Origin: an uncultured Pirellulales bacterium
Lineage (GTDB): Bacteria; Planctomycetota; Phycisphaerae; Sedimentisphaerales; Anaerobacaceae
Reading direction: 5' to 3'
Assembly (NCBI GenBank): GCA_964601355.1
Contig: CAZRNB010000001.1
Coordinates: forward strand, 825-64,824
DNA: 64,000 nt
Below the pieces are notes generated by a model. That model saw nothing but the letters and a program-made list of their open reading frames with translations, made no database searches and was not told the DNA's origin. A program made the position numbers and the translations under genes. Shown in pieces: positions 6,299 to 64,000 of this stretch; positions within the stretch are counted from its first letter, which is position 1, and every line of letters starts with the position of its first letter.

Positions 6299-8122
6299 TT
6301 ATCCCAGCTCTTCGGAATCCAGAATACTCATAAAAGCTTCCTGGGGTATCTGTACCGAGCCTATGCTCTTCATACGCTTCTTGCCTTCTTTTTGCTTTTT
6401 GAGCACCTTCATCTTTCGAGTGACATCACCGCCGTAAAGTTTGGCGGTTACGTCCTTACGATAAGCCTTGACGGTTTCCCTGGCAATAATCTTGGCCCCG
6501 ATGGCCGCCTGGAGTGGTATCTCAAACTGATGTCGCGGGATTGACTTGCGAAGCCTGGTTATAAGTCTTCGGCCGCGAGCCTCAGCAGTGCTTCGATGAA
6601 CAATCAGAGAAAGTGCGTCAACAGCGACTTTGTTGACAAGAACATCCATCTTGACAAGGTCGCTCTTTTCAAAATCCATAAACTCGTAGTCCATCGTCGC
6701 ATAGCCGTGGCTTATGCCCTTAAGGACGTTGTAGAAATCATAGACTATTTCAGCGAGTGGTGCTTTGTATTCAAGCATGACTCGGGTTCCACTTATGTAA
6801 TCGGTCTTGAGCAGTCTGCATCGTCGGCTCTCGGCCAGCTTCATAATATCACCTATCGAGTCGCTTGCCGTGACTATCTCCAGTCGAACAAACGGCTCAC
6901 GAAGCTCGGCGACTTTTGTAATGTCGGGCAGCTCGCTTGGAGAATCAATCCTTGTTACCTTGCCGTCTTTAGTCAGGACTTCATAGCTGACAGTCGGAGC
7001 AGTTTGGATGACGTTTATACCATGCTCGCGCTCGAGCCGCTCCTGGATAATATCCATGTGCAGGAGTCCCAGGAAGCCGCACCGAAAACCAAATCCCAGA
7101 GCGGGTGAATTGTGTGCAGAAAAAGAGAAACTTGCGTCATTGGGCGCCAATTTCTCAAACGCTGCCCGAAGTTTGGGATAGTCGGTATTATTACCGGGAT
7201 AGAAATCGGAAAACACCATCTGCATCGGCGGCTTATAGCCGGCCAGCGCCTTGTGAGCAGGTTCAGCGTTATCGGTAATCGTATCCCCAATAGTGACGTC
7301 AGCCAATTCGCGAATATTGGCAATCACATAGCCGACCTCTCCTGTGCCCATTTCGTCCACAGGTTTCATTTTGGGTGTGAACTTGCCTAACTCAGTTATG
7401 GTATATGTCCTGCCATTGCTCATAAAGCGAATCTTCTGCCCAACTCTAAGGCTTCCTGCGAATACCCTGACATAGCATATTACGCCCCTATAGTCATCAC
7501 AGTGACTGTCGAAAACAAGCGCTGCTGTTTGCTCGCGGCTTCGGTCGGGAGGCGGCGGAAGAAGCGTTACTAATGCATCCAGCAGCTCCGGAACCCCCGT
7601 GCCTTTCTTGGCACTGATGTGAAAACATTCATTCTTCCTGATTCCTATTGTGTGCTCAATTTCCTCTGCGACAATTTCGGGCCGGGCCGATGGGAGGTCA
7701 ATCTTATTCACCACGCCAATAAGCTCCACGTTATTTTCAACAGCCAGATGCGCATTGGCAACCGTCTGGGCCTGGACACCCTGGGTCGCATCAACCACCA
7801 GAAGCGCCCCCTCGCATGCCGCCAAAGCACGTGAGACTTCATAATGAAAATCCACGTGCCCGGGCGTATCAATGAGGTTTAGCATGTACTTTTTTCCTTC
7901 GTGCTCGTAGTTGAGGGTGACAGCGGAAGCTTTGATAGTGATGCCGCGCTCTCGCTCAAGGTCCATATCATCGAGTATCTGGTCCTTCTTTTCACGCTCA
8001 GTCACCGCCCCGGTAAGCTCCAGTATCCGGTCGGCCAGTGTGCTTTTACCATGGTCGATATGTGCTATTATCGAGAAATTTCTTATATGTTCTGTACTCA
8101 TCAATATTTCACCAAAATGCAA
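6299..8122 (-). CDS. lepA: elongation factor 4 (LepA)
   Basis: IRNFSIIAHIDHGKSTLADR, DTPGHVDF, NKIDL and the LepA-specific C-terminus. An alternative start is at 8101 (MSTEH). Confidence 0.95.
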   Translation of the reverse strand: MHFGEILMSTEHIRNFSIIAHIDHGKSTLADRILELTGAVTEREKKDQILDDMDLERERGITIKASAVTLNYEHEGKKYMLNLIDTPGHVDFHYEVSRALAACEGALLVVDATQGVQAQTVANAHLAVENNVELIGVVNKIDLPSARPEIVAEEIEHTIGIRKNECFHISAKKGTGVPELLDALVTLLPPPPDRSREQTAALVFDSHCDDYRGVICYVRVFAGSLRVGQKIRFMSNGRTYTITELGKFTPKMKPVDEMGTGEVGYVIANIRELADVTIGDTITDNAEPAHKALAGYKPPMQMVFSDFYPGNNTDYPKLRAAFEKLAPNDASFSFSAHNSPALGFGFRCGFLGLLHMDIIQERLEREHGINVIQTAPTVSYEVLTKDGKVTRIDSPSELPDITKVAELREPFVRLEIVTASDSIGDIMKLAESRRCRLLKTDYISGTRVMLEYKAPLAEIVYDFYNVLKGISHGYATMDYEFMDFEKSDLVKMDVLVNKVAVDALSLIVHRSTAEARGRRLITRLRKSIPRHQFEIPLQAAIGAKIIARETVKAYRKDVTAKLYGGDVTRKMKVLKKQKEGKKRMKSIGSVQIPQEAFMSILDSEELG

Positions 8123-12699: not shown

Positions 12700-13128
12700 C
12701 TCCGAAATCGCATTTTATGTCAAACTAATTTCATTTTTGAATCAAAATTTACAGACAAACACTATAAACATAGATTCTGCCATAATTTCTTTTGGCTTCG
12801 TACCAGGTCATCTCCTCGCCGTCAATGCGGCATGAATATGTCCGGTGGGCATGTCGCAATCATTTCGCGGGCCTCTATTGACTCATGACATAAACGCGCT
12901 TATGCCCGCCTCGACGAAACCTTTAAAATACCACGTTCCTGATAATGCTCCTTCTTCTTCAATATCCAATACGTCCCCTCCGCTCAAGACGGATGTTCTT
13001 TATTCCTTCACCCGAACTTACACACAATATATTACACTACTATACGCGTCTCCTTTCTGCGGCTTAACCGCAAATGTTTTTCTGATGCAGGGATTATATC
13101 CCAACACCAGGAGACGCGCTTTCATAAA

Positions 13129-13270
13129 ATCATTTCGAGCGAGCCGAAGGCGAGTCGAGAAATCTGCTTTAGATCCTTCGACTTCGCTCAGGACGCCTTA
13201 CGGCGGATTTCTCCGCTTCGCCCCTGTTTCTGTCTTCGACAGAAGACACGGGGGCTTCGCTCGAAATGAT
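13129..13270. mobile_element. MITE-like 142-bp element with perfect 14-bp terminal inverted repeats
   Basis: atcatttcgagcga at 13129-13142 and its exact reverse complement tcgctcgaaatgat at 13257-13270. The interior contains the CCTTCGACTTCGCTCAGGAC module and a gtctt/aagac hairpin. No coding capacity. Confidence 0.45.
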
Positions 13271-13595
13271 AGTGGGTCTTTTCTACAGAGCAATTTTGGT
13301 ATGTAATTTTTTATTTGTGCCTTTTGTAATTTAAATTTGTCTGGGCTGCCTTAAAGCCGATGATATACACTGACAAGCTGTTTCAACTGCATATATCTTT
13401 CGAACCTTTCAGATGCGCTTAAACTTACGAAACTTTCTAACGTCCTATAATTTTTATATTATCATATTTTTTATTCTCTTTCCTCATGTAATAGAATCTG
13501 CCTAAATTGCCTGTTCAATTCTATTTAGATTTTTTTAAGGGTTGATAATAAATAGCTTATCATGGCTAATATGGGAAATTTAATAATTTTTATTC

Positions 13596-21804: not shown

Positions 21805-21862
21805 GGATACCACGTGGGCAGCAGTGGCATACGCCACGCCGTGTGCCGGTATCCCACTGTGG
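21805..21862. repeat. nested hairpin repeat GGATACC...GTGGC-ATAC-GCCAC...GGTATCC directly upstream of clpX
   Basis: ggataccacgtgggcagcagtggcatacgccacgccgtgtgccggtatcccactgtgg. A shortened copy ggataccacgtggagtatcccacagtgg lies inside the S41 peptidase ORF at 37124-37151. Confidence 0.65.
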
Positions 21863-21875
21863 AAGGAAGGTAATA

Positions 21876-23147
21876 ATGGCCAAGCAATCAAATATGAAAG
21901 GGCCGAAAGCAATCTGCAGCTTCTGCGGACGATCGGCAAGCCAGGCTGATACGCTCATAGAGGGCCCGAACAGGGTTTTTATTTGTCCGGAATGCGTTGA
22001 GCTTTGCCATAACATCATTCGACAAAACCGAAAACATCCCGTCCGCACAAGTACAAATCTGCGAGAATTGCCCAAGCCAAAGGAAATAAAAGCGTTTCTC
22101 GACCAATATGTAATCGGGCAGGAGCACGCCAAAAAATATCTCTCCGTCGCCGTGCACAATCATTACAAACGGCTCCTCCATAGTGACACAGCCGACAGCG
22201 ACATCGAGATAGACAAATCCAATGTGCTGCTAATCGGGCCGACCGGCAGCGGCAAAACGCTGCTCGCCCGCACGCTGGCCCGGAAATTAGAAGTGCCGTT
22301 TGCGATATGCGACGCCACCACCGTTACCGAGGCCGGCTACGTCGGTGAAGACGTCGAAAATTTCCTGCTGCGGCTGCTGCAGAACGCCGACTACGACCTG
22401 GAAGCCGCCCAGCGAGGCATTGTCTATATCGACGAAATCGACAAAATAGGCAAAACTTATCAAAATATCTCAATCACCCGTGACGTCTCCGGCGAAGGTG
22501 TGCAGCAGGCACTATTAAAGATGCTGGAAGGAACAACCGCTAATATCCCGCCCCAAGGGGGAAGAAAGCATCCGGAGCAGACCTATATACAAATGGACAC
22601 CACGCAAATACTTTTTATATGCGGCGGAACCTTCATAGCCCTGGACAATATCATCAAAAAACGTTTGGGCAGAAAAATGATCGGCTTCGGCTCGGAAATA
22701 TCCGGCAGAACCGATGAAAAAACAGAGTATAGCGACATCCTCAGACAGGTTACTCCTGAAGACCTAATAGAGTTCGGCATGATACCGGAGTTCGTCGGAA
22801 GATTGCCTGTAATTGCCAATCTTGACGCACTCGATGAAAAGGTGCTTATGGAAATATTAACCAGGCCGAAAAACGCATTGATAAAGCAGTATCAGAGATT
22901 CTTCGAGATGGAGGATGCCGGGCTGGAATTTACAACGGGCGCCTTACAATCGCTGGCTCAAAAGGCGCTCAAGCGGGACACAGGCGCCAGGGCTCTTCGT
23001 GCAATTACTGAGGAGCTGATGGTGGACCTGATGTACCAGCTTCCGGATGAATCCAGAGGCGCAAAATACGTAATTACCCGTGACATTGTCGAAGGCAAAG
23101 CCGACCTATTCACTGCAAAACAAACGAGAAAAAAAGAATCCGCTTAA
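21876..23147 (+). CDS. clpX: ATP-dependent Clp protease ATP-binding subunit ClpX
   Basis: Zinc finger CSFCGRS...CPEC, Walker [14 protein letters not shown] and the ClpX-typical IGF-like loop region. ATG at 21876 is preceded by GGAAGGAAGG. Confidence 0.95.
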
Positions 23148-23154
23148 GTCTGTT

Positions 23155-23228
23155 GATCGATACTCGATGCTTTGATGCTCTCCACAGGACACCTTTCGGC
23201 GGGCGAGTATCGAATATCCAGGATCGAG
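23155..23228. repeat. hairpin element: 7-mer arms (TCGATAC/GAGTATC type) around the 22-nt core, between convergent clpX and the L,D-transpeptidase gene
   Basis: gatcgatactcgatgctttgatgct-CTCCACAGGACACCTTTCGGCG-ggcgagtatcgaatatccaggatcgag, where tcgatactcg pairs with cgagtatcga. Likely a bidirectional terminator. Confidence 0.7.
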
Positions 23229-24308
23229 TTAATCTACGACTCTGACCTGCGAATGAACCGGCACTAACATATTATAAAGGAGTATTGCATCACCATTATG
23301 CAGACGAATACAACCTCTGGATTCGGCAGCACCAATCGTATCCGGCTCTTTTGTGCCGTGAATACCAAAGCCGGTTCGGTCCCTGGCTGGTCCTTCCACG
23401 CCTTGCAGCTCAATCCATCTTGAGCCTAAGGGATAATCCGGATCGGTAGGCTTATATACCCGATGTGTATCAGGGTCTGTCCAAATGGGCTTTTCCATTT
23501 TTCCATCTTTTTTCACACGCCAGAGCCCTAACGGCGTTTCCTTGCCCGGCTTGCCAAGCCCCACGGGGAAGCTACGAATGTAAGTATTCTGCAGATATAA
23601 ATCCATTGTAAAAGTCGAACGATTTACCTTAGCATTGAAAGGGCCATTAATGGCCTTTATAGTCTGTCCGACCTGTAGTGCCTGCGGACTGCTGATATTG
23701 TTAATCTGCATTAAAATCTCATAAGGCACTTTATACCGCTCACCAATTATTCTTAGCTCATCACCCTGTTTGATTCTATAACTGCTGCAAATTTTATCAT
23801 CCGGAAAAAGACTTTTGCTGAAGAGCCAGCGCTCTGAGAGACCGGTTAGCTGCCCTTTAATAAATTCTCGCTGCCTGGCGTCACGGCATATTATTAGCGC
23901 ATCATTCAACCTGTCGCGTGCCTCTATAACCAAGCTGGGCTGACTGTTGATCAGCGCCATAGCCTCGCGAATAATCTCGGCGACCTTAGGATCCGATTGA
24001 ATCGCTGATTTCGATAAAAGACTTACCACATTAGGCTCAAGCCTGGATCCTGCCGCCAAGGTCGCAACAGACTGTGGCGTTTTGATGCCTAAATCAGGCT
24101 CAGGCAAACTCTTAGCCACGGCTTTTTCATTTCCCTCGGCCACGCTCTCCACAGGACGCCTGTCGGCGGGGGCAGATTTGCCGAAAGGACCGAGACCGTA
24201 AATCACGGCAATTATCGCAACAATGATAAGAAGAGCTAAAATGATGTATATTCCATTTGTGCTCAGGCTTATCCGTCTGCCAGGCAATGGGAAAGGAAAA
24301 CGAGCCAT
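23229..24308 (-). CDS. L,D-transpeptidase (YkuD) with LysM domain, membrane-anchored
   Basis: LysM: YRIKQGDELRIIGERYKVPYEILMQINNISSPQALQVGQTIK. YkuD: GFGIHGT...SRGCIRL. The ATG at 24308 has an AAGGAG RBS; the ORF-track start at 24335 is less likely. Confidence 0.85.
   Translation of the reverse strand: MARFPFPLPGRRISLSTNGIYIILALLIIVAIIAVIYGLGPFGKSAPADRRPVESVAEGNEKAVAKSLPEPDLGIKTPQSVATLAAGSRLEPNVVSLLSKSAIQSDPKVAEIIREAMALINSQPSLVIEARDRLNDALIICRDARQREFIKGQLTGLSERWLFSKSLFPDDKICSSYRIKQGDELRIIGERYKVPYEILMQINNISSPQALQVGQTIKAINGPFNAKVNRSTFTMDLYLQNTYIRSFPVGLGKPGKETPLGLWRVKKDGKMEKPIWTDPDTHRVYKPTDPDYPLGSRWIELQGVEGPARDRTGFGIHGTKEPDTIGAAESRGCIRLHNGDAILLYNMLVPVHSQVRVVD
24147..24168. repeat. diverged copy of the 22-nt core inside the L,D-transpeptidase linker
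   Basis: ctccacaggacGcctGtcggcg has 2 differences from the copy at 23180-23201. It encodes ADRRPVES. Confidence 0.55.
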
Positions 24309-24309
24309 A

Positions 24310-24894
24310 TTAATCTCCTTTTCTACGGCTTTCAAAATACAGTATCTCTTCGTCGGTTACTAAAAAATCTACCGGCTCATCGCACTCCGTTACCGGTATT
24401 GAGCTGACCACCTGCTCTTCAAAAGCAAAGCCACACCGAAAGGCCCGAAGCTGCTTATTACTGAAAAGCCTGTCATAGAAGGAACCGCCTCTGCCGAGAC
24501 GATGGCCTTTCCTGTCAAATCCCAACGCCGGGGCAACCACTAAATCGATTTCCTCAAACGGTATCGGTATGCCTGTCACCGGATTCCGCAGTCCTGAAAC
24601 CTCTATGGTAAAATCCGTCTCCAATGAGTTGATTTGCACGGGTATCATGTGCCTTTGCTGCCATGAAATTTTCGGCACCGCGACAGTTTTACCGAGCTGC
24701 CAGGCCTGAAGTATAGCCTCAGAGGTGTCCACCTCATGGGGAAGTGATAAATACATCATAATCGTCGAAGCATCCTGAAATTCCTTCGTTGAAATCAGAT
24801 TCCGACAGGCCTTGTGACTTTTCTCAACACGCTGCTTTTCATCGATCTCGAATATACAATTTTTTAACTCACACCGCAATCGGCCTTTATCCAT
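24310..24894 (-). CDS. 5-formyltetrahydrofolate cyclo-ligase
   Basis: 194 aa. VAVPKI..., GFDRKGHRLGRGGSFYDR matches the 5-FCL family signature. Confidence 0.8.
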   Translation of the reverse strand: MDKGRLRCELKNCIFEIDEKQRVEKSHKACRNLISTKEFQDASTIMMYLSLPHEVDTSEAILQAWQLGKTVAVPKISWQQRHMIPVQINSLETDFTIEVSGLRNPVTGIPIPFEEIDLVVAPALGFDRKGHRLGRGGSFYDRLFSNKQLRAFRCGFAFEEQVVSSIPVTECDEPVDFLVTDEEILYFESRRKGD

Positions 24895-52469: not shown

Positions 52470-52994
52470 GTGGTGAATATGGCCAACAGCAATAAACAAA
52501 ATGATGACGGCGTTCTTCGAGCAGGCGATATAATACCGCCCTACAACACTCGACCGGCTCGGGAAACCCCGGCAGAACAAACAGACACAAAACAGCAGGC
52601 AAGCGACATACCGAGATTTAACTTAGCCGAGCAGATCTTGGCAGAGCAGCGAAAAATATCCTCTACAAAAAGAAAATCTCCCGGCCCAAAAAGTATACCT
52701 CCAAGCCGACTCATCACGGCGGAGCGTGCCGGAGCGAGACAGGAAAAGAACGAGAAAAGCAGCGGAGTATTCATTCTCCGTCCCTTAGCGCCGAAAGGTG
52801 TCCTGCGGAGGACTGCGAAGGATGAAAGCCCCACTCAATTCTATTCGGCTGTTACACAGCCGGCAATACTGCTGTTAAACCAGCAGCAAATCATAGCAGA
52901 GATTGTAGCGAAGGATATAGCAAAGCTGTCCGGAGACTTGGCTGGTGGCCATCAAAAGCAAACATCCAGTGCATCAACCCCGTTAGAGAATTAA
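52470..52994 (+). CDS. hypothetical low-complexity protein
   Basis: 174-aa ORF immediately after the M16 pair, GTG start. Conserved-looking IPRFNLAEQILAEQRK and QQQIIAEIVAKDIAKL segments. The middle contains a core repeat. Confidence 0.5.
   Translation: MVNMANSNKQNDDGVLRAGDIIPPYNTRPARETPAEQTDTKQQASDIPRFNLAEQILAEQRKISSTKRKSPGPKSIPPSRLITAERAGARQEKNEKSSGVFILRPLAPKGVLRRTAKDESPTQFYSAVTQPAILLLNQQQIIAEIVAKDIAKLSGDLAGGHQKQTSSASTPLEN
52767..52830. repeat. 22-nt core (reverse orientation, 52789-52810) with imperfect inverted flanks, in-frame in the 174-aa ORF
   Basis: gtattcattctccgtccc-ttag-CGCCGAAAGGTGTCCTGCGGAG-gactgcgaaggatgaaagcc encodes GVFILRPLAPKGVLRRTAKDES. Confidence 0.7.
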
Positions 52995-54231: not shown

Positions 54232-54513
54232 ATGATTAAAACCTTCAAGTGTAAAGAAACGCAAAAGATTTTTTGCCGGCGATATTCCAGAAAGCTGCCT
54301 TCTGATATTCAAAAGGTAGCTTTTAGAAAACTGCGTATGATCGACCGTAGTTACACATTAAGTGATTTGAAAGTTCCGCCAGCTAACAGGTTGGAAATGC
54401 TGTCCGGTAAAAGAAAAGGGCAATATAGTATTCATATTAATGATCAATGGCGAATTTGCTTTAGATGGATAGATAATAATGCCCTTGACGTAGAAATTAC
54501 AGATTATCATTGA
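54232..54513 (+). CDS. higB: HigB-type toxin (RelE/ParE superfamily, 'killer protein')
   Basis: MIKTFKCKETQKIF...LRMIDRSYTLSDLKVPPANRLEMLSGKRKGQYSIHINDQWRICFRW is the classic HigB/plasmid-maintenance killer pattern. Confidence 0.85.
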   Translation: MIKTFKCKETQKIFCRRYSRKLPSDIQKVAFRKLRMIDRSYTLSDLKVPPANRLEMLSGKRKGQYSIHINDQWRICFRWIDNNALDVEITDYH

Positions 54514-54522
54514 GGTAAGAAA

Positions 54523-54825
54523 ATGAGAAATAATAAAATACCTCCACTGCATCCTGGAGAGATTCTTCTTGAAGAATTCTTAAAGCCTCTGAATATAAGC
54601 CAAAATCAGCTTGGTCGAGACTTAGGAGTGTCTGCTCGAAGAATAAACGAGATTATTCATGGCAAAAGGAGCATAACAGCAGATACGGCTCTCCGTTTAG
54701 CCCGGTATTTTGGCAATTCGCCGCAGTTTTGGCTCGGCCTTCAAATAGATTACGATTTGGACGTGGAGACAGACAGGCTCTCACATCGAATAAAAAAAGA
54801 AGTGAAAAAATTAGCCTATGCGTAG
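54523..54825 (+). CDS. higA: HigA-type antitoxin (XRE-family HTH)
   Basis: HPGEILLEEFLKPLNISQNQLGRDLGVSARRINEIIHGKRSITADTALRLARYFGNSPQFWLGLQ. Confidence 0.9.
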   Translation: MRNNKIPPLHPGEILLEEFLKPLNISQNQLGRDLGVSARRINEIIHGKRSITADTALRLARYFGNSPQFWLGLQIDYDLDVETDRLSHRIKKEVKKLAYA

Positions 54826-57287: not shown

Positions 57288-58172
57288 TCAAATAACTGCC
57301 GTTTTGTGCCTGTGACTGTGGCATTCGATATTCACTGCTACCGGCAGTGAGGCAATGTGGCAGGGTGCCATTTCAACTGCAGCCGCCAAGGCGGTAGTAT
57401 CACCGCCGAGTCCCTGCGGCCCCAAGCCAAGTGCGTTAATCCTCGAAAGCAAATCCGCCTCAATCGCAGCGTAAAACTCGCTGGGATTGTGTGAAGCCAG
57501 ATTTCGCAGCAGCGCCTTTTTGCTCAGCAGGCAGCTTAATTCAAAATCGCCGCCAATGCCCACTCCCACAATAAATGGAGGACAGGCATCCGCCCCAGCC
57601 GTTTTTACAGCATCGACGACCCAGTCAATAATCTGGTTTCTTTCCGCGGTGGGTTTAAACATCCTGAACTGGCTTTTGTTCTCACATCCGCCGCCCTTGG
57701 CCATGACGGTCAACTTTAACTTATCGCCGGGTACAATTGTATAATGAATTACAGCAGGCGTATTAGAGCTGGTATTTTCACGTTTATTCAAAGGTTCTGC
57801 AACAACGCTTTTTCGCAGGTATCCTTTCTCGTAACCGGCCTTGACGCCTGCATTGATAGCGTCGAGTGGGGTGGCGCAGTCTTTCCCTCCGCAGGACACC
57901 TTTCGGCGGACGGAAGATTTGAAAACGACATCCGCTCCCTGCTCGACAAACACTATCGCCAGGCCTGTGTCCTGACACAATGGTATTTGTTCAGCCGAAG
58001 CCATGCGGGCATTTTCAATGAGCTGATTTAATATTTTTGCTGCACGGGGATTGGATTCTTTACGTGCGGCTTTTTCCAGAGCAGCTAAAACGTCCTCAGG
58101 CAGCTCGTAATTAGCTGCTATACAAAGGGATTCGACCGTCTCAGCGATCTTTTCAAGCTCGATGTAGCGCAC
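57288..58172 (-). CDS. class I (Fe-S) fumarate hydratase / tartrate dehydratase alpha subunit
   Basis: LCIAANYELPEDV, IPLCQDTGLAIVF, NTPAVIHY and AKGGGCENKS. The GTG at 58172 is preceded by GAGGGA and avoids the 80-nt overlap implied by the ORF-track start 58274. Confidence 0.8.
   Translation of the reverse strand: MRYIELEKIAETVESLCIAANYELPEDVLAALEKAARKESNPRAAKILNQLIENARMASAEQIPLCQDTGLAIVFVEQGADVVFKSSVRRKVSCGGKDCATPLDAINAGVKAGYEKGYLRKSVVAEPLNKRENTSSNTPAVIHYTIVPGDKLKLTVMAKGGGCENKSQFRMFKPTAERNQIIDWVVDAVKTAGADACPPFIVGVGIGGDFELSCLLSKKALLRNLASHNPSEFYAAIEADLLSRINALGLGPQGLGGDTTALAAAVEMAPCHIASLPVAVNIECHSHRHKTAVI
57887..57908. repeat. 22-nt core copy in-frame in the fumarase alpha gene
   Basis: CTCCGCAGGACACCTTTCGGCG, read on the minus strand as RRKVSCG within the extra segment KSSVRRKVSCGGKDCATP. 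Confidence 0.8.
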
Positions 58173-58194
58173 AATAATAAAATCCCTCAAATCC

Positions 58195-60666
58195 TTATTT
58201 TCCCGGCAGATCGAAAGTTTTATACGTTGTATTATCAACGTCGTCTTTGACTTTGACGGTGAGGATATGCTCACCGGCTTTCAAATCTTCTACTACAATT
58301 GTGAAGCTCTCATCTGTAGTATCATAAACCAGGTCGTCAGGAATGGAGCCTTTCCATTCTGCATTGCTGTCAACGGTGTATTGCACCTCGCCGATTATGC
58401 TTAGCTCGTCATGCACCAGCAGCTTTAATGTTATTGTGCTGTCGGTTTTTGTAATAGAGTTTTCACCGATGACCGGCCCGGTATTATCGATTATCACCGG
58501 ATCGCTTATTCTGCTGTCCGTCAGTTTGGTTGCCGCATTATTGCTTCTTTCATCGCTTGCGGTTACTCTGAGCTCATACCGGCCATCTTCAACGGTCCTT
58601 CCGTCCCAGTCGAAGCTATCTGCTTCGTGCTCGTCTTCAAGCTCAATCCAGTTAGTTCTGCCGATTTTTCTAAGGTCTATCTTGTAGATCAGCTTGTCAC
58701 TGTTGTCGTCCTTTGCCTTATAGGTAATTTTGAATCCTCCGGGAAGGATTTTATTGGTAGGCTCAACCCGGCTGACATTGACGGATTCAACCTTCGGAGC
58801 CAGATTCGGCACGGTGCTGGCAACTGCAATTTCCCTTATAATGGGAGTTTTAAGACCGTCTTCGCTTTTCAGGATAAGTTTATATTGGCAGAATCTGCCG
58901 ATTGGACAAGACAGTTGTACCGGCTCATTTATCTCTATCGGCTCAGTCCAATCCGAAAAAGTTGGGTCGTTCACGTCTTCAACGTTACCGCTGCGGGATG
59001 CTATCAAAACCTTGCATCCCTGCGGGATGTCGGCCTCAATTTGCAGCTTGCCCCACCTGGCAGGCTGACCGGCGTCAATCAGGTCGGAAATGTAGGTACC
59101 ATCCGCAGCAAAAGTTTTGTTTAGCTTTATCAGCTTTGGAGGATTTGCGGTCCCAAGATACACAACACCATCGGCCACGGCTATCGATGTTATCTGTGAT
59201 GCCTGCTCGTCCTCATAAACAATTGCCTGCTGCTCCGTCGCCGGGTCGATGGTAAAAAGTTGAGCGGAGTTTCCCGTTCCTACAAGCAGCTTTGAATCTT
59301 GTTCGGCCAAGCAGAAGAAAACCGCTGTCTCGCTGAATACATCGGTTACAAAACCCTCTTTGTTTATTTTGTGTATAACGCTGGTTTTATCAGATTTGGC
59401 TGCCTGGCGGGGTGGCATCTTTTTGCCGGCTGATTCATCAACTGCTCGTCTTTTTATATTTGCTATTTGCAGCTTACGTCCCGATACATCGGGATTGACG
59501 GAGTCTTCCCGCTTTTGCGAGGGCACCTCAGGCCGACCCGCCACAAACGATTCCGCTGCAAAACTTGTTTCAGCCTGGACGGCCTGGGCCGATGTTGCCG
59601 CCGCGTATAAATATGTATCTGCAGAAGTCAAAGTCGATGCCGACAGCAGCGCTGTAATCTCAGGCTGCTCACTGTCATACAAAACCGTCGCTGTTTTAGT
59701 GCGTGGATTTATTTTATATACCAGTCCTCGGCCGTCGCTGCCGGCATAAATTGAACCATCTTTTGCAGTGGCTAACGAAAGGATGTTTTTGTCTCGACTG
59801 GTATAAATAATTTGTGCCTCTCTGCCCAGAGAGTCGAGCTGATACACATTGCCCTTCGGCCCCGTACCTAAATAAATATTACCTACATTATCGGTAGCTA
59901 TGGCGAAGATATATCTGGTGTCATCCGCAGCGCCGAAAGGTGTCCTGCGGAGCGGCGGGTCTGATCCGGTCCAGGCTTTCAGCCTGGTCGTCCTGGGCTC
60001 AAAAATCGTTTCCAGCTTGTTTCCTTCAAGCCGACACAGTCTGCATTCTTTACCACTTATACCTGCCAGCAGCCTGCCAGAAACATCGGTAGCCATCGCA
60101 AAAATATGCTCATTTGACAGATGCCGTTCTTCCCCCTCGGCTGCACTCGGGACAGGCTTAACCTCGTTTGCATCGTTGATCTCGTCTGTACTTTCAATCT
60201 CCGCAGGACACCTTTCGGTGCTGTCGGTGGCAGGCTCATTATCCTGCTCGGCATCCGGTTCTTCCCCCCGGAAGGGGTCCTGTGGACTGGGAGGATCTTC
60301 TATTGTGGGATTTTTCTCGGGCTTTTGATCACTTTGCAGAGGATATACCTTTGTCAATTGCCCGATGCTGTATTTATAAATGCCTCCGTTGGGACTTGTG
60401 CCGATGTAAATTATGCCGCCGCTTATAACGATGCTGTTTATCGACCAGACATTCTCGAGCTTCTCAACCAGAACTTGCGAGGCATATCCAAGCTGAATAA
60501 TCCCCCGAAGGTCAATGACAATGTTTTCGGTTTTGCCCTTTAGTAAATCAGCACCGCTTTTGTGGTGTATAATTTTTGTTGTGACCGCTCGGCTCTGAGT
60601 AACAAAAAACATAGGTAATATGCAGCTTGCAAGTGCACAAATCACAAAAATTCTTTTATGTGTCAT
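58195..60666 (-). CDS. secreted repeat protein (beta-propeller-like repeats plus C-terminal Ig-like region)
   Basis: Signal peptide (FVICALASCILPMFFV). A recurring motif (I/V)Y(L/I/A)G(T/S)xxxGx(V/I/L)(Y/F/I)K(Y/I/L) appears at least 5 times. An acidic disordered linker is present, and the C-terminus is beta-rich. Confidence 0.65.
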   Translation of the reverse strand: MTHKRIFVICALASCILPMFFVTQSRAVTTKIIHHKSGADLLKGKTENIVIDLRGIIQLGYASQVLVEKLENVWSINSIVISGGIIYIGTSPNGGIYKYSIGQLTKVYPLQSDQKPEKNPTIEDPPSPQDPFRGEEPDAEQDNEPATDSTERCPAEIESTDEINDANEVKPVPSAAEGEERHLSNEHIFAMATDVSGRLLAGISGKECRLCRLEGNKLETIFEPRTTRLKAWTGSDPPLRRTPFGAADDTRYIFAIATDNVGNIYLGTGPKGNVYQLDSLGREAQIIYTSRDKNILSLATAKDGSIYAGSDGRGLVYKINPRTKTATVLYDSEQPEITALLSASTLTSADTYLYAAATSAQAVQAETSFAAESFVAGRPEVPSQKREDSVNPDVSGRKLQIANIKRRAVDESAGKKMPPRQAAKSDKTSVIHKINKEGFVTDVFSETAVFFCLAEQDSKLLVGTGNSAQLFTIDPATEQQAIVYEDEQASQITSIAVADGVVYLGTANPPKLIKLNKTFAADGTYISDLIDAGQPARWGKLQIEADIPQGCKVLIASRSGNVEDVNDPTFSDWTEPIEINEPVQLSCPIGRFCQYKLILKSEDGLKTPIIREIAVASTVPNLAPKVESVNVSRVEPTNKILPGGFKITYKAKDDNSDKLIYKIDLRKIGRTNWIELEDEHEADSFDWDGRTVEDGRYELRVTASDERSNNAATKLTDSRISDPVIIDNTGPVIGENSITKTDSTITLKLLVHDELSIIGEVQYTVDSNAEWKGSIPDDLVYDTTDESFTIVVEDLKAGEHILTVKVKDDVDNTTYKTFDLPGK
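59931..59987. repeat. 22-nt core (59931-59952, reverse orientation) plus hairpin CCAGGCT-TTC-AGCCTGG, in-frame
   Basis: Encodes ...KAWTGSDPPLRRTPFGAADD... in the propeller-like protein. Confidence 0.75.
60199..60220. repeat. 22-nt core copy (one substitution) in the acidic linker of the same protein
   Basis: CTCCGCAGGACACCTTTCGGTG, read as TERCPAE. Confidence 0.75.
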
Positions 60667-60680
60667 AATAACTCCCAGAA

Positions 60681-60789
60681 GTGCCTAAAATTTAGAGTGA
60701 CTAAAGTGCCTAAAGTTACGAAATATAATCTTAGCTTGCTTTAGGCACTTTAGCTCACTTTAGGCACTTTAGCTCACTTTAGGCACTTT
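60681..60789. repeat. hairpin element, family D, long copy
   Basis: gtgcctaaaatttagagtgactaaagtgcctaaagt-loop-ctttaggcactttagctcactttaggcactttagctcactttaggcacttta, between the S55-like gene and the propeller-like gene. Confidence 0.8.
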
Positions 60790-60810
60790 ATCTAATTGGA
60801 TTCTGTCACA

Positions 60811-62862
60811 CTATTTCTCTACCGTTATACGCATACTTTTTCTATCGGCTACGATTGTGCCTGTTCTTACACTTTTTTCGAGCCATTGTGGATAGGGCTG
60901 GATTCTTAATGCTCTTATATCATCCTGCATGACAAGCGTTTTTGTCGCCGGCAAATCAGGAAGCTCAGACCTTTCTACTGCTATGCCGCTGGGCGGTAAA
61001 ACTAAAAGGCAGTACAATTTATCTCTATTGATGCTTAAAACATCGTTCAATGCCTCAATCAGACTCGTCATATCATACGCGATAAATCTATACGGGACGG
61101 TTTTCCGCAGATGCTGTTCATATTCGGACGAGCCTAATACAATCAATTCGTATTTCCCGGGATTGAGACCTTCGGGTATTTTCAGGCTGAACTGATATTT
61201 TTTCTTTTCTGAGAGGTACGATTCGAGAACGACGTCCACCTGGATTTGATGCCCAGGCTTAATACTCGAATCAGACAAATCGACCGACCATATATAAGAG
61301 GCGATGTTTTTCGGCAGGATGCGGATATCGAAATCAAGTGATGTTATATCAACTTCCTCAAAGGGATTGTTCATTAGCAGAAGCACGGAACCTTTACTTT
61401 CGGCTATCATTTCAGCCGTAGATAGTCCTGTGGATATATTTTCAAAATTGATCCCTATTTGTTGGGATTTGTCTTTCAGGCCGATACTTACCTTGTATTC
61501 AATCGTATGGTCCGGCGGAAAGCTGCCGAGGGACATAACTGCTCCAGACACGGTTGCATGGAGCAGCTCAGGAGTAAGCAATCGATTGTTGGCGAGCCGG
61601 CAGTTAAAACTTGCATCCCGTCGAAATCGGCTTTGCTCCCGTCCAGACAATCGGCCTGGCTGCTCTTGTGTGTTAAAACGGCTCACTTTTATCGTCAGCG
61701 GTATCATCTGCGGCGTTGCACCGATTTGCCCGAAAATCGCTGTTGGTTCGTCGGTTGTCAAGGCGCCGACTATTTCCATGCTGCTACCGAGCTTAAAAGA
61801 ACGAGCCAGATTTGATACAATGGTATGCACTTGGCCGGTGGCCATTGGCAAATCTATCGCTCCATAACCAAGCAGGCTGTGGCCAAAACCATAGACCTTA
61901 TCTCCCACAATCTCAGTGACGGTCCCAAGCACAGTCGATGTTATATCACCATCGACTAACGGCACCGTAAGAACTGCACCCGGGGTTAGCTGCACCTTTT
62001 GAGTATTGTTGGCATCCGAATTGCCTCCAATGCCCGAAACAGCCATAAGCCCGTAAGGCTCAAGCAAGGCCTCGAATTGTTTACAGGCATCAGGCGGCAG
62101 GCCGGAAATAATTAACGGGCACGGCAGCCATCCCAGCGCCGAAAGGTGTCCTGCGGAGCTGGATGCTGGATGCTGGATGCTGGATGCTGAATGCTCGACG
62201 AGAATCGAGCGTCGAGAATTGAGCATCGAGTTAATTTCAGCAAAATCGATCGGCTTGGAAAAATCGAGCGCAAATCCCATTTTGTTGGATTTCAAATCGT
62301 TGGCACTGCCTACTTTGAGCATTTCTTTAATCGGCGTAACGCCGTAAAGCGGGTCTTTGCTGAGTGTCCAGGCGAAAGACATCGCCCCGGCCAGCCGGCC
62401 TTCAATATAGACCGGCGAGCCGCTGCACCCGGCTACGGGACCTGTGTAAATAAAACGCTTATCTGTGCCTTGAACCAAAATCGCATCTCGACCCGGCTCA
62501 ATATTGTGCACCACACTTATAACATCCAAATCGAACTTCTCGATTTTGGTGCCGCTGTAACAGGTAAGACAATATGCCTTCATCCCAGGAGTAATCTCAT
62601 CAATGCTTATATATTTGGCTGGATCCCAAAGGTCTTTTGCAGAGCTTTTGCTGGGTGGGGCCGTATCTGGCGCAGCATTTTTTCCCACCTGCTGAGCGGA
62701 TTCACAAAGAGAGTCAGCTAAAAGCAGAAGACAGAAGACAAAAGCCGGAAAACAGAGGACAGAGGACGGAGAACGGAAATTCTGCCTTCTGTCTTCCGTC
62801 TTCTGTCTTCTATATTCTGTATTCTTTTTTTGCCCTTTTGCCCTTGTTTTTATTATGAACAT
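60811..62862 (-). CDS. secreted SpoIVB/S55-like serine peptidase-domain protein
   Basis: GCSGSPVYIEGRLAGAMSFAW (GxSGSP serine motif) and GTVTEIVGDKVYGFGHSLLGYG resemble peptidase S55. The N-terminal signal peptide is encoded by the family F repeat. Confidence 0.55.
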   Translation of the reverse strand: MFIIKTRAKGQKKNTEYRRQKTEDRRQNFRSPSSVLCFPAFVFCLLLLADSLCESAQQVGKNAAPDTAPPSKSSAKDLWDPAKYISIDEITPGMKAYCLTCYSGTKIEKFDLDVISVVHNIEPGRDAILVQGTDKRFIYTGPVAGCSGSPVYIEGRLAGAMSFAWTLSKDPLYGVTPIKEMLKVGSANDLKSNKMGFALDFSKPIDFAEINSMLNSRRSILVEHSASSIQHPASSSAGHLSALGWLPCPLIISGLPPDACKQFEALLEPYGLMAVSGIGGNSDANNTQKVQLTPGAVLTVPLVDGDITSTVLGTVTEIVGDKVYGFGHSLLGYGAIDLPMATGQVHTIVSNLARSFKLGSSMEIVGALTTDEPTAIFGQIGATPQMIPLTIKVSRFNTQEQPGRLSGREQSRFRRDASFNCRLANNRLLTPELLHATVSGAVMSLGSFPPDHTIEYKVSIGLKDKSQQIGINFENISTGLSTAEMIAESKGSVLLLMNNPFEEVDITSLDFDIRILPKNIASYIWSVDLSDSSIKPGHQIQVDVVLESYLSEKKKYQFSLKIPEGLNPGKYELIVLGSSEYEQHLRKTVPYRFIAYDMTSLIEALNDVLSINRDKLYCLLVLPPSGIAVERSELPDLPATKTLVMQDDIRALRIQPYPQWLEKSVRTGTIVADRKSMRITVEK
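62137..62230. repeat. 22-nt core followed by about ten 7-mers (CTGGATG x3, degenerating to CTCGACG/AGAATCG/AGCATCG), in-frame
   Basis: CGCCGAAAGGTGTCCTGCGGAG-ctggatgctggatgctggatgctgaatgctcgacgagaatcgagcgtcgagaattgagcatcgag encodes SRRSILVEHSASSIQHPASSSAGHLSALG. Confidence 0.85.
62724..62826. repeat. long family F hairpin inside the 5' end of the S55-like ORF
   Basis: Left arm gcagaagacagaagacaaaagccggaaaacagaggacagaggacggagaacggaa, right arm ttctgccttctgtcttccgtcttctgtcttctatattctgtattc. gaagacagaagac and gtcttctgtcttc are perfectly complementary. Confidence 0.85.
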
Positions 62863-63024: not shown

Positions 63025-63870
63025 ATGAAATCTGGGCATAGACATGAGCTTAAAACAAATGAATTAGCCGAGTGGATGTCAAATTTTCCAGAATGGATCA
63101 AAGAAAATCGCATAACAATTATCAGCTTATTGTTGGTTGTTGTTGTGGCCGGTATTCTGTCCGTCTGGAGAAATCAAAACAGAAAAGTCACTATCAAAAG
63201 ACAGCTCGAGTTTACAGGTTATTTGAGCCAGTTGTTAGGCGGCAGGGCGCAAATTATGAGCTCTCAAGCCCAGGGTAAAGACCTTTCATACATACTGCTG
63301 CAGCCGGCCAATAGTCTGGCGAATTTTGCTCAAACTGTAAAAGACAGCCGGATGTCCGCTTTTGCGCTTATTAAACGAGCGGAAGCTCTGCGAGCCGAGT
63401 TACATTACCGACTCGGCCCGGTAAATGAGCAGGATTTTGCAGCTCAGATAAGTCTGGCGAAAGACAGCTACAATGAAGCAATTAAAAAAGCTGGTTCCGA
63501 TCCTTCACTGATGGCAGAGGCAAAATTCGGCCTGGGACTATGTGAGGAAGAGCTGGGCAATTTTGAGGCTGCCCGGCAGATATATCAAGACGTGGCGGCC
63601 AATCCCGATTTTGAAGGCACAGTAGCTAAAACCGCTGCAAAGCAGCGCCTTGTGACAATGGCTGATTATAAGACAAAGATTATCTTTATGCCATCTGCCA
63701 AACCAAAACCTCCGGCTGCTATACAGCCGAAGATAGAATTAAAACCCGTTGACATCAATAGTCTGCCGGACGGCGTAAAGAAATCGCTTCAGTCCGCAGG
63801 ACGCCTTCCGGCGGACCCGAATAGAATTCGTAACGTTCCCGTCATAAATATCGAACCAAACCTGCGGTGA
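63025..63870 (+). CDS. membrane-anchored TPR-like protein (YfgM-like architecture)
   Basis: N-terminal KTNELAEW...ITIISLLLVVVVAGILSVW anchor, helical TPR-like body and a Pro-rich tail. Confidence 0.55.
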   Translation: MKSGHRHELKTNELAEWMSNFPEWIKENRITIISLLLVVVVAGILSVWRNQNRKVTIKRQLEFTGYLSQLLGGRAQIMSSQAQGKDLSYILLQPANSLANFAQTVKDSRMSAFALIKRAEALRAELHYRLGPVNEQDFAAQISLAKDSYNEAIKKAGSDPSLMAEAKFGLGLCEEELGNFEAARQIYQDVAANPDFEGTVAKTAAKQRLVTMADYKTKIIFMPSAKPKPPAAIQPKIELKPVDINSLPDGVKKSLQSAGRLPADPNRIRNVPVINIEPNLR

Positions 63871-64000
63871 AACCGCAGGCTAAATCCGCCAAAGGCGGAT
63901 AAATATTTAGCCCCACGTTTCACGTGGGGTTCATATGCAAAGCAAAATGTGCGAGTCGCCGGATACCACAGCGCCGAAAGGTGTCCTCCGAAAGGAGTCC
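63861..64000. repeat. cluster of at least five short stem-loops, including a core copy
   Basis: cctgcgg-tgaaa-ccgcagg (spans the stop codon), atccgcc-aaa-ggcggat, ccccacg-tttca-cgtgggg, then ggataccacagCGCCGAAAGGTGTCCTccgaaaggag, with cgcc-GAAA-ggtg and ctcc-GAAA-ggag tetraloop hairpins. Confidence 0.7.

Follow-up and report, generated by a model that had tools for sequence, protein, structure and literature searches.

Why does one short sequence recur in both orientations, between genes and within them, and come to be translated in different reading frames? The question is raised by a 22-nt core, CTCCGCAGGACACCTTTCGGCG, in a 64-kb stretch of DNA from an uncultured Pirellulales bacterium (64,000 nt in full, hereafter the window). 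In the first-pass annotation, the use of several frames was taken as a sign of selection or homogenisation acting on the nucleotide sequence, and a recognition site at the level of RNA or single-stranded DNA was suggested. Comparison of filled and empty sites at four places revealed solo copies to be discrete insertions, each of exactly 21 nt and without target-site duplication. We therefore consider it probable that the 21-mer is a miniature insertion element similar to REPs (palindromic sequences of the repetitive extragenic kind) and recognised as a single-stranded DNA hairpin.

The 22-mer has nine matches in the window at up to three mismatches; 100 shuffled versions with dinucleotides preserved contained none. 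A stem variant and a 17-nt partial were recovered in addition when looser patterns and a covariance model were applied, resulting in a total of nine full and two partial copies that score 16-44 bits under the covariance model against a background below 10 bits. The eight copies reported in the first-pass annotation were all recovered; its list lacked three others, at 63792-63813 (+), 60266-60286 (-) and 13189-13205 (+). Eight of the 11 copies fall within the last 12 kb, eight are inside open reading frames (ORFs), and six are on the plus strand and five on the minus strand. No sequence is common to their flanks, and the conserved block spans only about 21-24 nt.

In the fumarase alpha ORF (57288-58274, -), the full 21-mer TCCGCAGGACACCTTTCGGCG (57888-57908, +) is read in frame as RRKVSCG. 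The gap in the alignment against PDB 7XKY falls at this heptapeptide, and among 120 homologs, with a modal length of 287 aa, the window protein is longer by seven residues in one loop. Codon comparison with the empty site of locus L092 gives a difference of +21 nt (+7 codons), and a decayed copy of the 21-mer lies at the identical fumarase site of locus L093. The syntenic loci of the nearest relatives (L096-L098, about 73% amino-acid identity) allowed several genes to be compared together. The TPR protein (ORF 63025-63870, +), in which TCCGCAGGACGCCTTCCGGCG (63793-63813, +) is read as QSAGRLP near the C-terminus, exceeds its counterpart in L096 by seven codons. Similarly, the propeller protein exceeds those of L096 and L098 by seven codons at site A, where the stem variant TCCACAGGACCCCTTCCGGGG (CCCC-TTCC-GGGG; 60266-60286, -) is read as PQDPFRG. 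When a 21-nt deletion was slid across these sites, collinearity was restored best at the conserved block, within 1-2 nt (best-fitting offset -2 to 0 in the TPR protein and -1 to +1 at site A).

The fourth comparison involves a composite palindromic repeat (window 13129-13270). Its empty junction, GCTC/GAAATGA (the slash marks the insertion point), is found in the window copy and in opposite arms, the window site TCGCTC/GAAATGAT lying in the right arm (13257-13270, +). The filled form, GCTC[TCCACAGGACGCCTGTCGGCG]GAAATGA, occurs in L007, L017, L032 and L050 with the 21-mer exactly at the junction, so that the boundaries are unambiguous and target duplication is absent. The proposal that selection or homogenisation acted on pre-existing coding sequence is contradicted by these sites, as the copies are 21-nt insertions missing at orthologous positions.

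Insertion shows a loose target preference. The base at position -1 was C or G for 97% of copies and never T; G occupies position +1 in 73% and A position +2 in 61%; the usual insertion point is thus immediately 5' of GA, following C or G. As GA is present beforehand in the empty sites of the TPR protein and the composite repeat, it reflects target choice and is not a part of the element. At propeller site A the empty site has AG and the window flank GG. The orientation of copies relative to the host gene is balanced, 4:4 in the window and 24:26 elsewhere, and an Rfam search of the window and 11 loci gave no family at gathering score, the sole match being a tRNA. Recognition at the RNA level, one of the two earlier suggestions, is disfavoured by the balanced orientation; the best fit is given by the other, a substrate of single-stranded DNA or of recombination. 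Low-complexity sequence with a 7-nt periodicity often adjoins core copies directly, as at window positions 62160-62190 in the S55 peptidase ORF and in L034, L053, L026, L063, L055, L057 and L072. Such flanks include four units of GCATCCA, two of CGTGGTT and AATTCGA-like runs, and are sometimes inverted across the core.

At a length of exactly 21 nt, the unit reads 5'-TCCRCAGGAC-RCC-NNNN-GGY-G-3' and is laid out as two adjacent mini-hairpins, TCC-RCA-GGA followed by CRCC-tetraloop-GGYG. Since the pattern used for the database scan left R and Y free, their association provides an unbiased test of covariation. The R-Y stem pair was A-T in 9 copies, G-C in 58 and mismatched in 4 (Fisher p = 4e-8). 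Among copies outside the pattern selection, the closing pair has changed from C-G to T-A in three, and C-G was also found as the second pair. Over all cells, stem pairing amounts to 97.9%, compared with 33-56% in slid controls. Judging from the aligned copies, this covariation demonstrates maintenance of the 4-bp stem by compensatory change. The GNRA-tetraloop mini-hairpin described in the first-pass annotation thus holds for its stem, but the loops are GNNA and not strictly GNRA: GAAA, GGAA, GACA, GGCA, GCAA and GUAA are found on the opposite strand, GACA and GGCA being common. In the dominant form of the window genome, one strand has A.C and the other G.T, an asymmetry that points to CGCC-GAAA-GGTG-TCCTGCGGA as the likely folded strand. 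In its weakness the hairpin resembles a structure meant for recognition more than a stable terminator. The idea that the flanks build a longer hairpin, with the core at its tip, was rejected, as pairing of left and right flanks barely exceeded the shuffled-partner control (p = 0.03).

To define the distribution, one genome per species was scanned with the degenerate 21-mer pattern. This yielded 91 stretches, all but about seven of them in about 45 metagenome-assembled genomes (MAGs) of Planctomycetota, labelled Phycisphaerae, Sedimentisphaerales or 'Pirellulales' bins; the seven or so outliers approximate the chance expectation for the pattern. The consensus at R (position 4) is genome-specific, with G in 10 of 11 copies of CSMAG_2761 and A in all five of MFD06995, as read by eye from the alignment against the locus list. 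Copies are sparse in the other genomes, with about 10 secondary matches in 640 kb, or about one extra copy per 60 kb. The nearest relatives have no copy in 35 kb of syntenic DNA, and the window lineage has therefore gained or retained its own copies. Open frames of at least 150-200 codons hold 55-61% of copies, compared with 77-82% of random positions. None of the viral contigs scanned carries the motif, and a link with phages was ruled out on this ground. The exact 22-mer was found at just two loci in a metagenome scan, too few for an analysis of polymorphism.

The host ORFs are supported as genes by Pfam (Fumerase, Peptidase_S55, beta-propeller, LysM with YkuD, and TPR). The 174-aa ORF at 52470-52994 (+), in which a full 21-mer (52789-52809, -) is read as APKGVLRR, is without a Pfam match, and whether it is coding is uncertain. 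The peptides previously assigned to the copies, RRKVSCG, APKGVLRR, STERCPAE and LRRTPFG in the propeller protein, and SAGHLSA in the S55-like peptidase, are correct on translation, and ADRRPVE in the YkuD L,D-transpeptidase follows from sequence and frame. Reading in several frames was likewise borne out, but the count of five was too low, as QDPFRG of the 60266 copy makes all six. Elsewhere, 36 independent copies in long ORFs likewise occupy all six frames, the small-residue readings SAGRLSA and AGRRPA being moderately over-represented. The identity thus lies at the nucleotide and not the peptide level, as originally claimed. Insertions in tolerant protein loops survive because 21 nt are seven codons and the unit is free of stops in all six frames. 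Because an insertion tolerated in frame merely adds a heptapeptide, the same nucleotides come to be read in six frames, and no selection on the peptide is required.

Other window sites are composite in comparison with the relatives, differing by +36 nt, +69 nt and about +45 nt, the last with GCATCCA heptamers. The 36-nt insertion at propeller site B (60196-60231, +) contains the 21-mer at 60200-60220 and, in addition, part of the hairpin half in duplicate; the sequence of this insertion on the strand of the gene, the reverse complement, is GCCACCGACAG, followed by the 22-mer and ATT. At site C, a 69-nt insertion (59926-59994, -) combines the 21-mer at 59931-59951 with a second module and a spacer. 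The second module consists of AGGAC and the hairpin CCAGGC-TGAAA-GCCTGG, and the site also has CTGCG pairing with TCCGCAG; the extended hairpin has a folding energy of -8.7 kcal/mol as DNA. In the S55-like peptidase ORF, the region 62128-62229 (-) shows a net gain of 15 codons (about +45 nt) and holds the 21-mer at 62137-62157 (SAGHLSA), four GCATCCA heptamer repeats and the partly complementary CTGGGATGG.

The variant 21-mer TCCACAGGACGCCTGTCGGCG at 24148-24168 (+), with a perfect G-C stem and a GACA loop, is read as ADRRPVE within the N-terminal portion encoded by the LysM/YkuD L,D-transpeptidase ORF (23229-24335, -). The copy at 23181-23201 (+) is intergenic, as had been described: clpX (21843-23147, +) and the L,D-transpeptidase gene converge around it, and its flanks, GATACTCG and CGAGTATC, are partly complementary. 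One partial copy (63972-63988, -), comprising the hairpin half and GGA, is preceded by the mini-hairpin CTCC-TTTC-GGAG and lies on the margin of a cluster of small intergenic hairpins. The other is the 17-nt CAGGACGCCTTACGGCG (13189-13205, +) at the centre of the composite repeat.

Some of the host proteins contain further insertions. In fumarase alpha, nearly all internal length variation among the 120 homologs (P0001-P0120) falls in the loop that holds the window copy (about 57870-57925), after VEQGxxV and before DAIN, the remaining variation reflecting differently called N-termini. At least eight unrelated short inserts occupy this loop across species, such as RAVKICG, GAKYLACG, ILNPKFQI, GARETRDEGRGAN and ELDTGYSILDTRK. 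For several repeat families, the loop is either a hotspot or a site that permits insertion. Compared with L096, the S55 peptidase has an in-frame 48-nt imperfect tandem duplication (61612-61659; GCCGATT...ACGGGA twice) and the propeller protein a 24-nt in-frame insert (60133-60156; PVPSAAEG), both unrelated to the core. The propeller gene of L098 carries at about 6730-6770 a 30-nt in-frame insert, CCACCCTCCGCAGTGCTACGGAGGACGGGC (PPSAVLRRTG), which forms a CTCCG-loop-CGGAG hairpin followed by GAC. It has CTCCGCAG and AGGAC in common with the core and was missed by the covariance model; it may belong to a related element family.

Two further repeat families were observed. The composite palindromic repeat, about 140-230 nt long, is common to at least five genomes with unrelated flanks (window 13129-13270; L007 560-900, L017 2770-3110, L032 60-400, L050 2890-3230). 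Its inner inverted repeats are (A/G)TCATTTCGA...TCGAAATGA(T/C) and GAGAAATCT/AGATTTCTC, its outer ones CTCTGTTGAAAA/TTTTCAACAGAG, and each arm has a variable hairpin. The 153-aa ORF that overlaps it (12845-13306) is probably spurious and lacks a Pfam match. The other family, made up of small palindromes (window 63850-63965; L094 1492-2379; L095 1501-2484; L040 about 6890-7000) is built of G/C-rich hairpins, CCTGCGG-TGAAA-CCGCAGG, CCGCC-AAA-GGCGG and CCCCACG-TTTC-ACGTGGGG, joined by CTAAAT or the palindrome GCTAAATATTTAGC. In the window it forms an intergenic cluster; in other species it provides in-frame inserts of at least 24 nt in fumarase alpha (GAKYLACG).

Based on the filled and empty sites and the conserved stem, we propose a course of events for the 21-mer. 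The element enters DNA as a discrete block, in either orientation, between or within genes. An insertion in a tolerant loop adds only a heptapeptide and is retained by selection. The family would persist in Planctomycetota of the Phycisphaerae/Sedimentisphaerales type through a conserved trans-acting enzyme that copies it, and this enzyme would recognise a folded single strand, most likely CRCC-GNNA-GGYG-TCCTGYGGA. As a guess, the enzyme might be a HUH/Y1 'peel and paste' transposase, RAYT- or IS200/IS605-like, which would fit because a hairpin is present and target duplication is absent. More tentatively, the 21-nt singlet itself might be actively mobile, with exact ends and without duplication, by means of an as yet unrecognised enzyme that a whole order or class of Planctomycetota would have in common; we hold this stronger version to be possible and somewhat doubtful. 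If true, the singlet would be among the smallest transposable DNA units known, and a seven-codon stop-free unit could colonise coding genes and keep supplying loop insertions to proteins such as fumarase, propeller proteins and peptidases.

Several results weigh against the element being a mobile hairpin of this kind. The stem has just 4 bp and little stability (-3 to -4 kcal/mol as DNA), and for the sequence variant of the window itself this thermodynamically weak hairpin is not the predicted minimum-energy fold. Copy number is low in most genomes, no MAG having more than about 12 pattern matches. A strand bias would be expected of an IS608-like lagging-strand mechanism, and the window ratio of 6:5 does not show one at this small sample size. 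REP tags (GTAG or CGTC) are lacking. A Pfam survey of 150 neighbouring genes gave no recurrent mobile-element or transposase family and housekeeping families only; in L080, L004 and L043, clustered copies enclose metabolic genes and no transposase, and none lies near the copies in the dense region of the window. A phmmer search with RayT over about 0.75 Mb around about 100 copies gave no homolog. Finally, 35% of same-composition shuffles are stop-free by chance and one length in three is divisible by three, neither feature being individually significant; the stop-free length of 3n was accordingly rejected as a statistically demonstrable adaptation.

A REPtron arrangement was ruled out by the metabolic and housekeeping neighbours and the empty RayT search around the copies. 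A hammerhead-like ribozyme was rejected as well: the junction, hairpin and GAAA of L007-type loci are similarly laid out, but the CUGANGA core is unmatched, Rfam is silent and the loci are the composite DNA repeat. The target end of a diversity-generating retroelement (a 3' recognition sequence with a hairpin) was discarded, as no similarity of the variable-repeat kind was found upstream of copies, and CRISPR repeats were discarded as no arrays were found. In the copy-dense part of the window, a HigB-like toxin and a helix-turn-helix antitoxin form a pair (54232-54825) between flavodoxin-like and Mur ligase genes.

The same insertions could have arisen by templated insertion during repair of breaks or forks without a dedicated transposase, a broken end priming on an existing copy through 2-3 nt of microhomology, copying the 21-mer and rejoining. 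Such a process would account for the lack of both target duplication and transposase, and the flanks often have the form AG/.../GA, resembling the internal CAG/GAC. Copies in the window are strongly clustered locally, and partial or duplicated forms exist (the hairpin half duplicated at site B, the partials at 13189 and 63972). However, four independent sites have exact boundaries that agree with one another, one of these sites being free of rotational ambiguity, and a consensus shared by about 45 species is more easily explained by a sequence-recognising enzyme. The covarying stem also speaks against repair as the source, which we regard as unlikely.

No better placed is a host-functional cis element under selection, either a site for an RNA-binding protein or RNase, or a translation module made of the hairpin and a Shine-Dalgarno-like GGAG/AGGA. 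It would explain the conservation across species, the covariation and the mostly GNRA-like loops on one strand. An orthologous intergenic copy in three species (L038 536-564, L058 1622-1650, L081 3236-3264) lies between a stop codon and the next start codon, with the GGAG of the element 7 nt upstream of ATG, and may have been co-opted as a ribosome-binding site. Gas-vesicle (gvp) Pfam families recur among the genes neighbouring the motif and are assigned to these three loci by inference only. The wider set of copies behaves otherwise: orientation relative to host genes is about 50:50, more than half of the copies are inside ORFs in six frames, close relatives lack them at orthologous sites, the L093 fumarase copy has decayed, the fold is weak and Rfam gives no match.

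A DNA uptake or genome-marking sequence, arising in place by mutation and biased uptake or conversion, would also be a short motif in both orientations and all frames, in and out of genes and common to related species, but this is highly improbable, as the filled and empty sites display 21-nt insertions and not substitutions, the density in most genomes is far too low (60 kb yield about one further copy, and no MAG exceeds 12 pattern matches) and a 21-nt unit with a structured stem is unlike known uptake sequences.

Taken as a REP-like insertion element, the 21-mer extends the record of selfish DNA within protein-coding genes, comprising Rickettsia palindromic elements (RPEs) and intragenic REPs, to environmental Planctomycetota. 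Repeats within genes are an already known phenomenon, and the 21-mer family departs from REPs in several of their defining features. Its unit is unusually small and sharply bounded, with a length and sequence that keep every insertion frame-preserving. Clean filled and empty sites give exact ends and a target preference. Such information is seldom available for REP-like repeats, and it opens the way to a search for the putative mobilising enzyme. For annotation, the element explains recurrent indels of heptapeptide scale in conserved enzymes of these lineages and flags spurious ORFs built over repeat clusters.

None of the papers in the library searched describes the element in these lineages, and comparison was made with several known systems. 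DNA uptake sequences and uptake signal sequences are in-place motifs at about one per kb, in contrast to low-density insertions relative to orthologs. Like MITEs (transposable elements of the miniature inverted-repeat type), the 21-mer is small, non-autonomous, dispersed and at times nested in other repeats; however, its ends (TCC.../...GCG) are not inverted repeats, target duplication is absent and it is about tenfold shorter than a typical MITE. With IS200/IS605 elements it shares a conserved hairpin, a short preferred target alongside (TC/ on the hairpin-first strand) and, at the four sites compared, the lack of target duplication. It differs from them in having no coding capacity, a single hairpin in place of separate left and right ends, a loose target preference (GA at +1/+2 in 61-73% of copies) and no identified TnpA; no strand bias is visible among the copies of the 64-kb window (6:5).

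Similar to the REP/REPIN-RAYT system, the 21-mer is a short dispersed stem-loop repeat of the 20-40 nt class in both orientations, with some inverted pairs (60200/60286, 63793/63988, and others in L030 and L082), a genome-specific consensus and seemingly long vertical persistence. Its stem of 4 bp is shorter than the 5-13 bp reported for REPs (PMC3733652), and it carries a conserved 9-nt tail that is unpaired or a mini-hairpin. In place of the GTAG tag, the left-flank 4-mers are GCAG, GCTC, TAAG and GCAC, with GTAG in few copies only; CGTC occurs solely within G-variants (GGCGTCC), and the dominant form of the window has TGTC. In addition, the family is not mainly extragenic (55-61% in long ORFs), and no RAYT gene was found adjacent to any copy. 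Unlike the REPIN doublet, the inserted unit appears to be a singlet, since most copies are singlets and the filled and empty sites show singlets.

RPE-1 type elements are lineage-specific and about 100-150 bp long. Compared with RPEs and the intragenic REPs of Opitutus terrae, the 21-mer is only 21 nt (7 aa), has defined ends and shows no sequence similarity to them. Both intragenic REPs and RPEs are documented as palindromic repeats lying in frame in functional genes, and O. terrae belongs to the Planctomycetes-Verrucomicrobia-Chlamydiae (PVC) superphylum, as do the Planctomycetota described here (PMC3733652). In common with these elements, the 21-mer behaves as a selfish palindromic repeat that lies in frame within genes and adds a peptide in tolerant regions of the protein.

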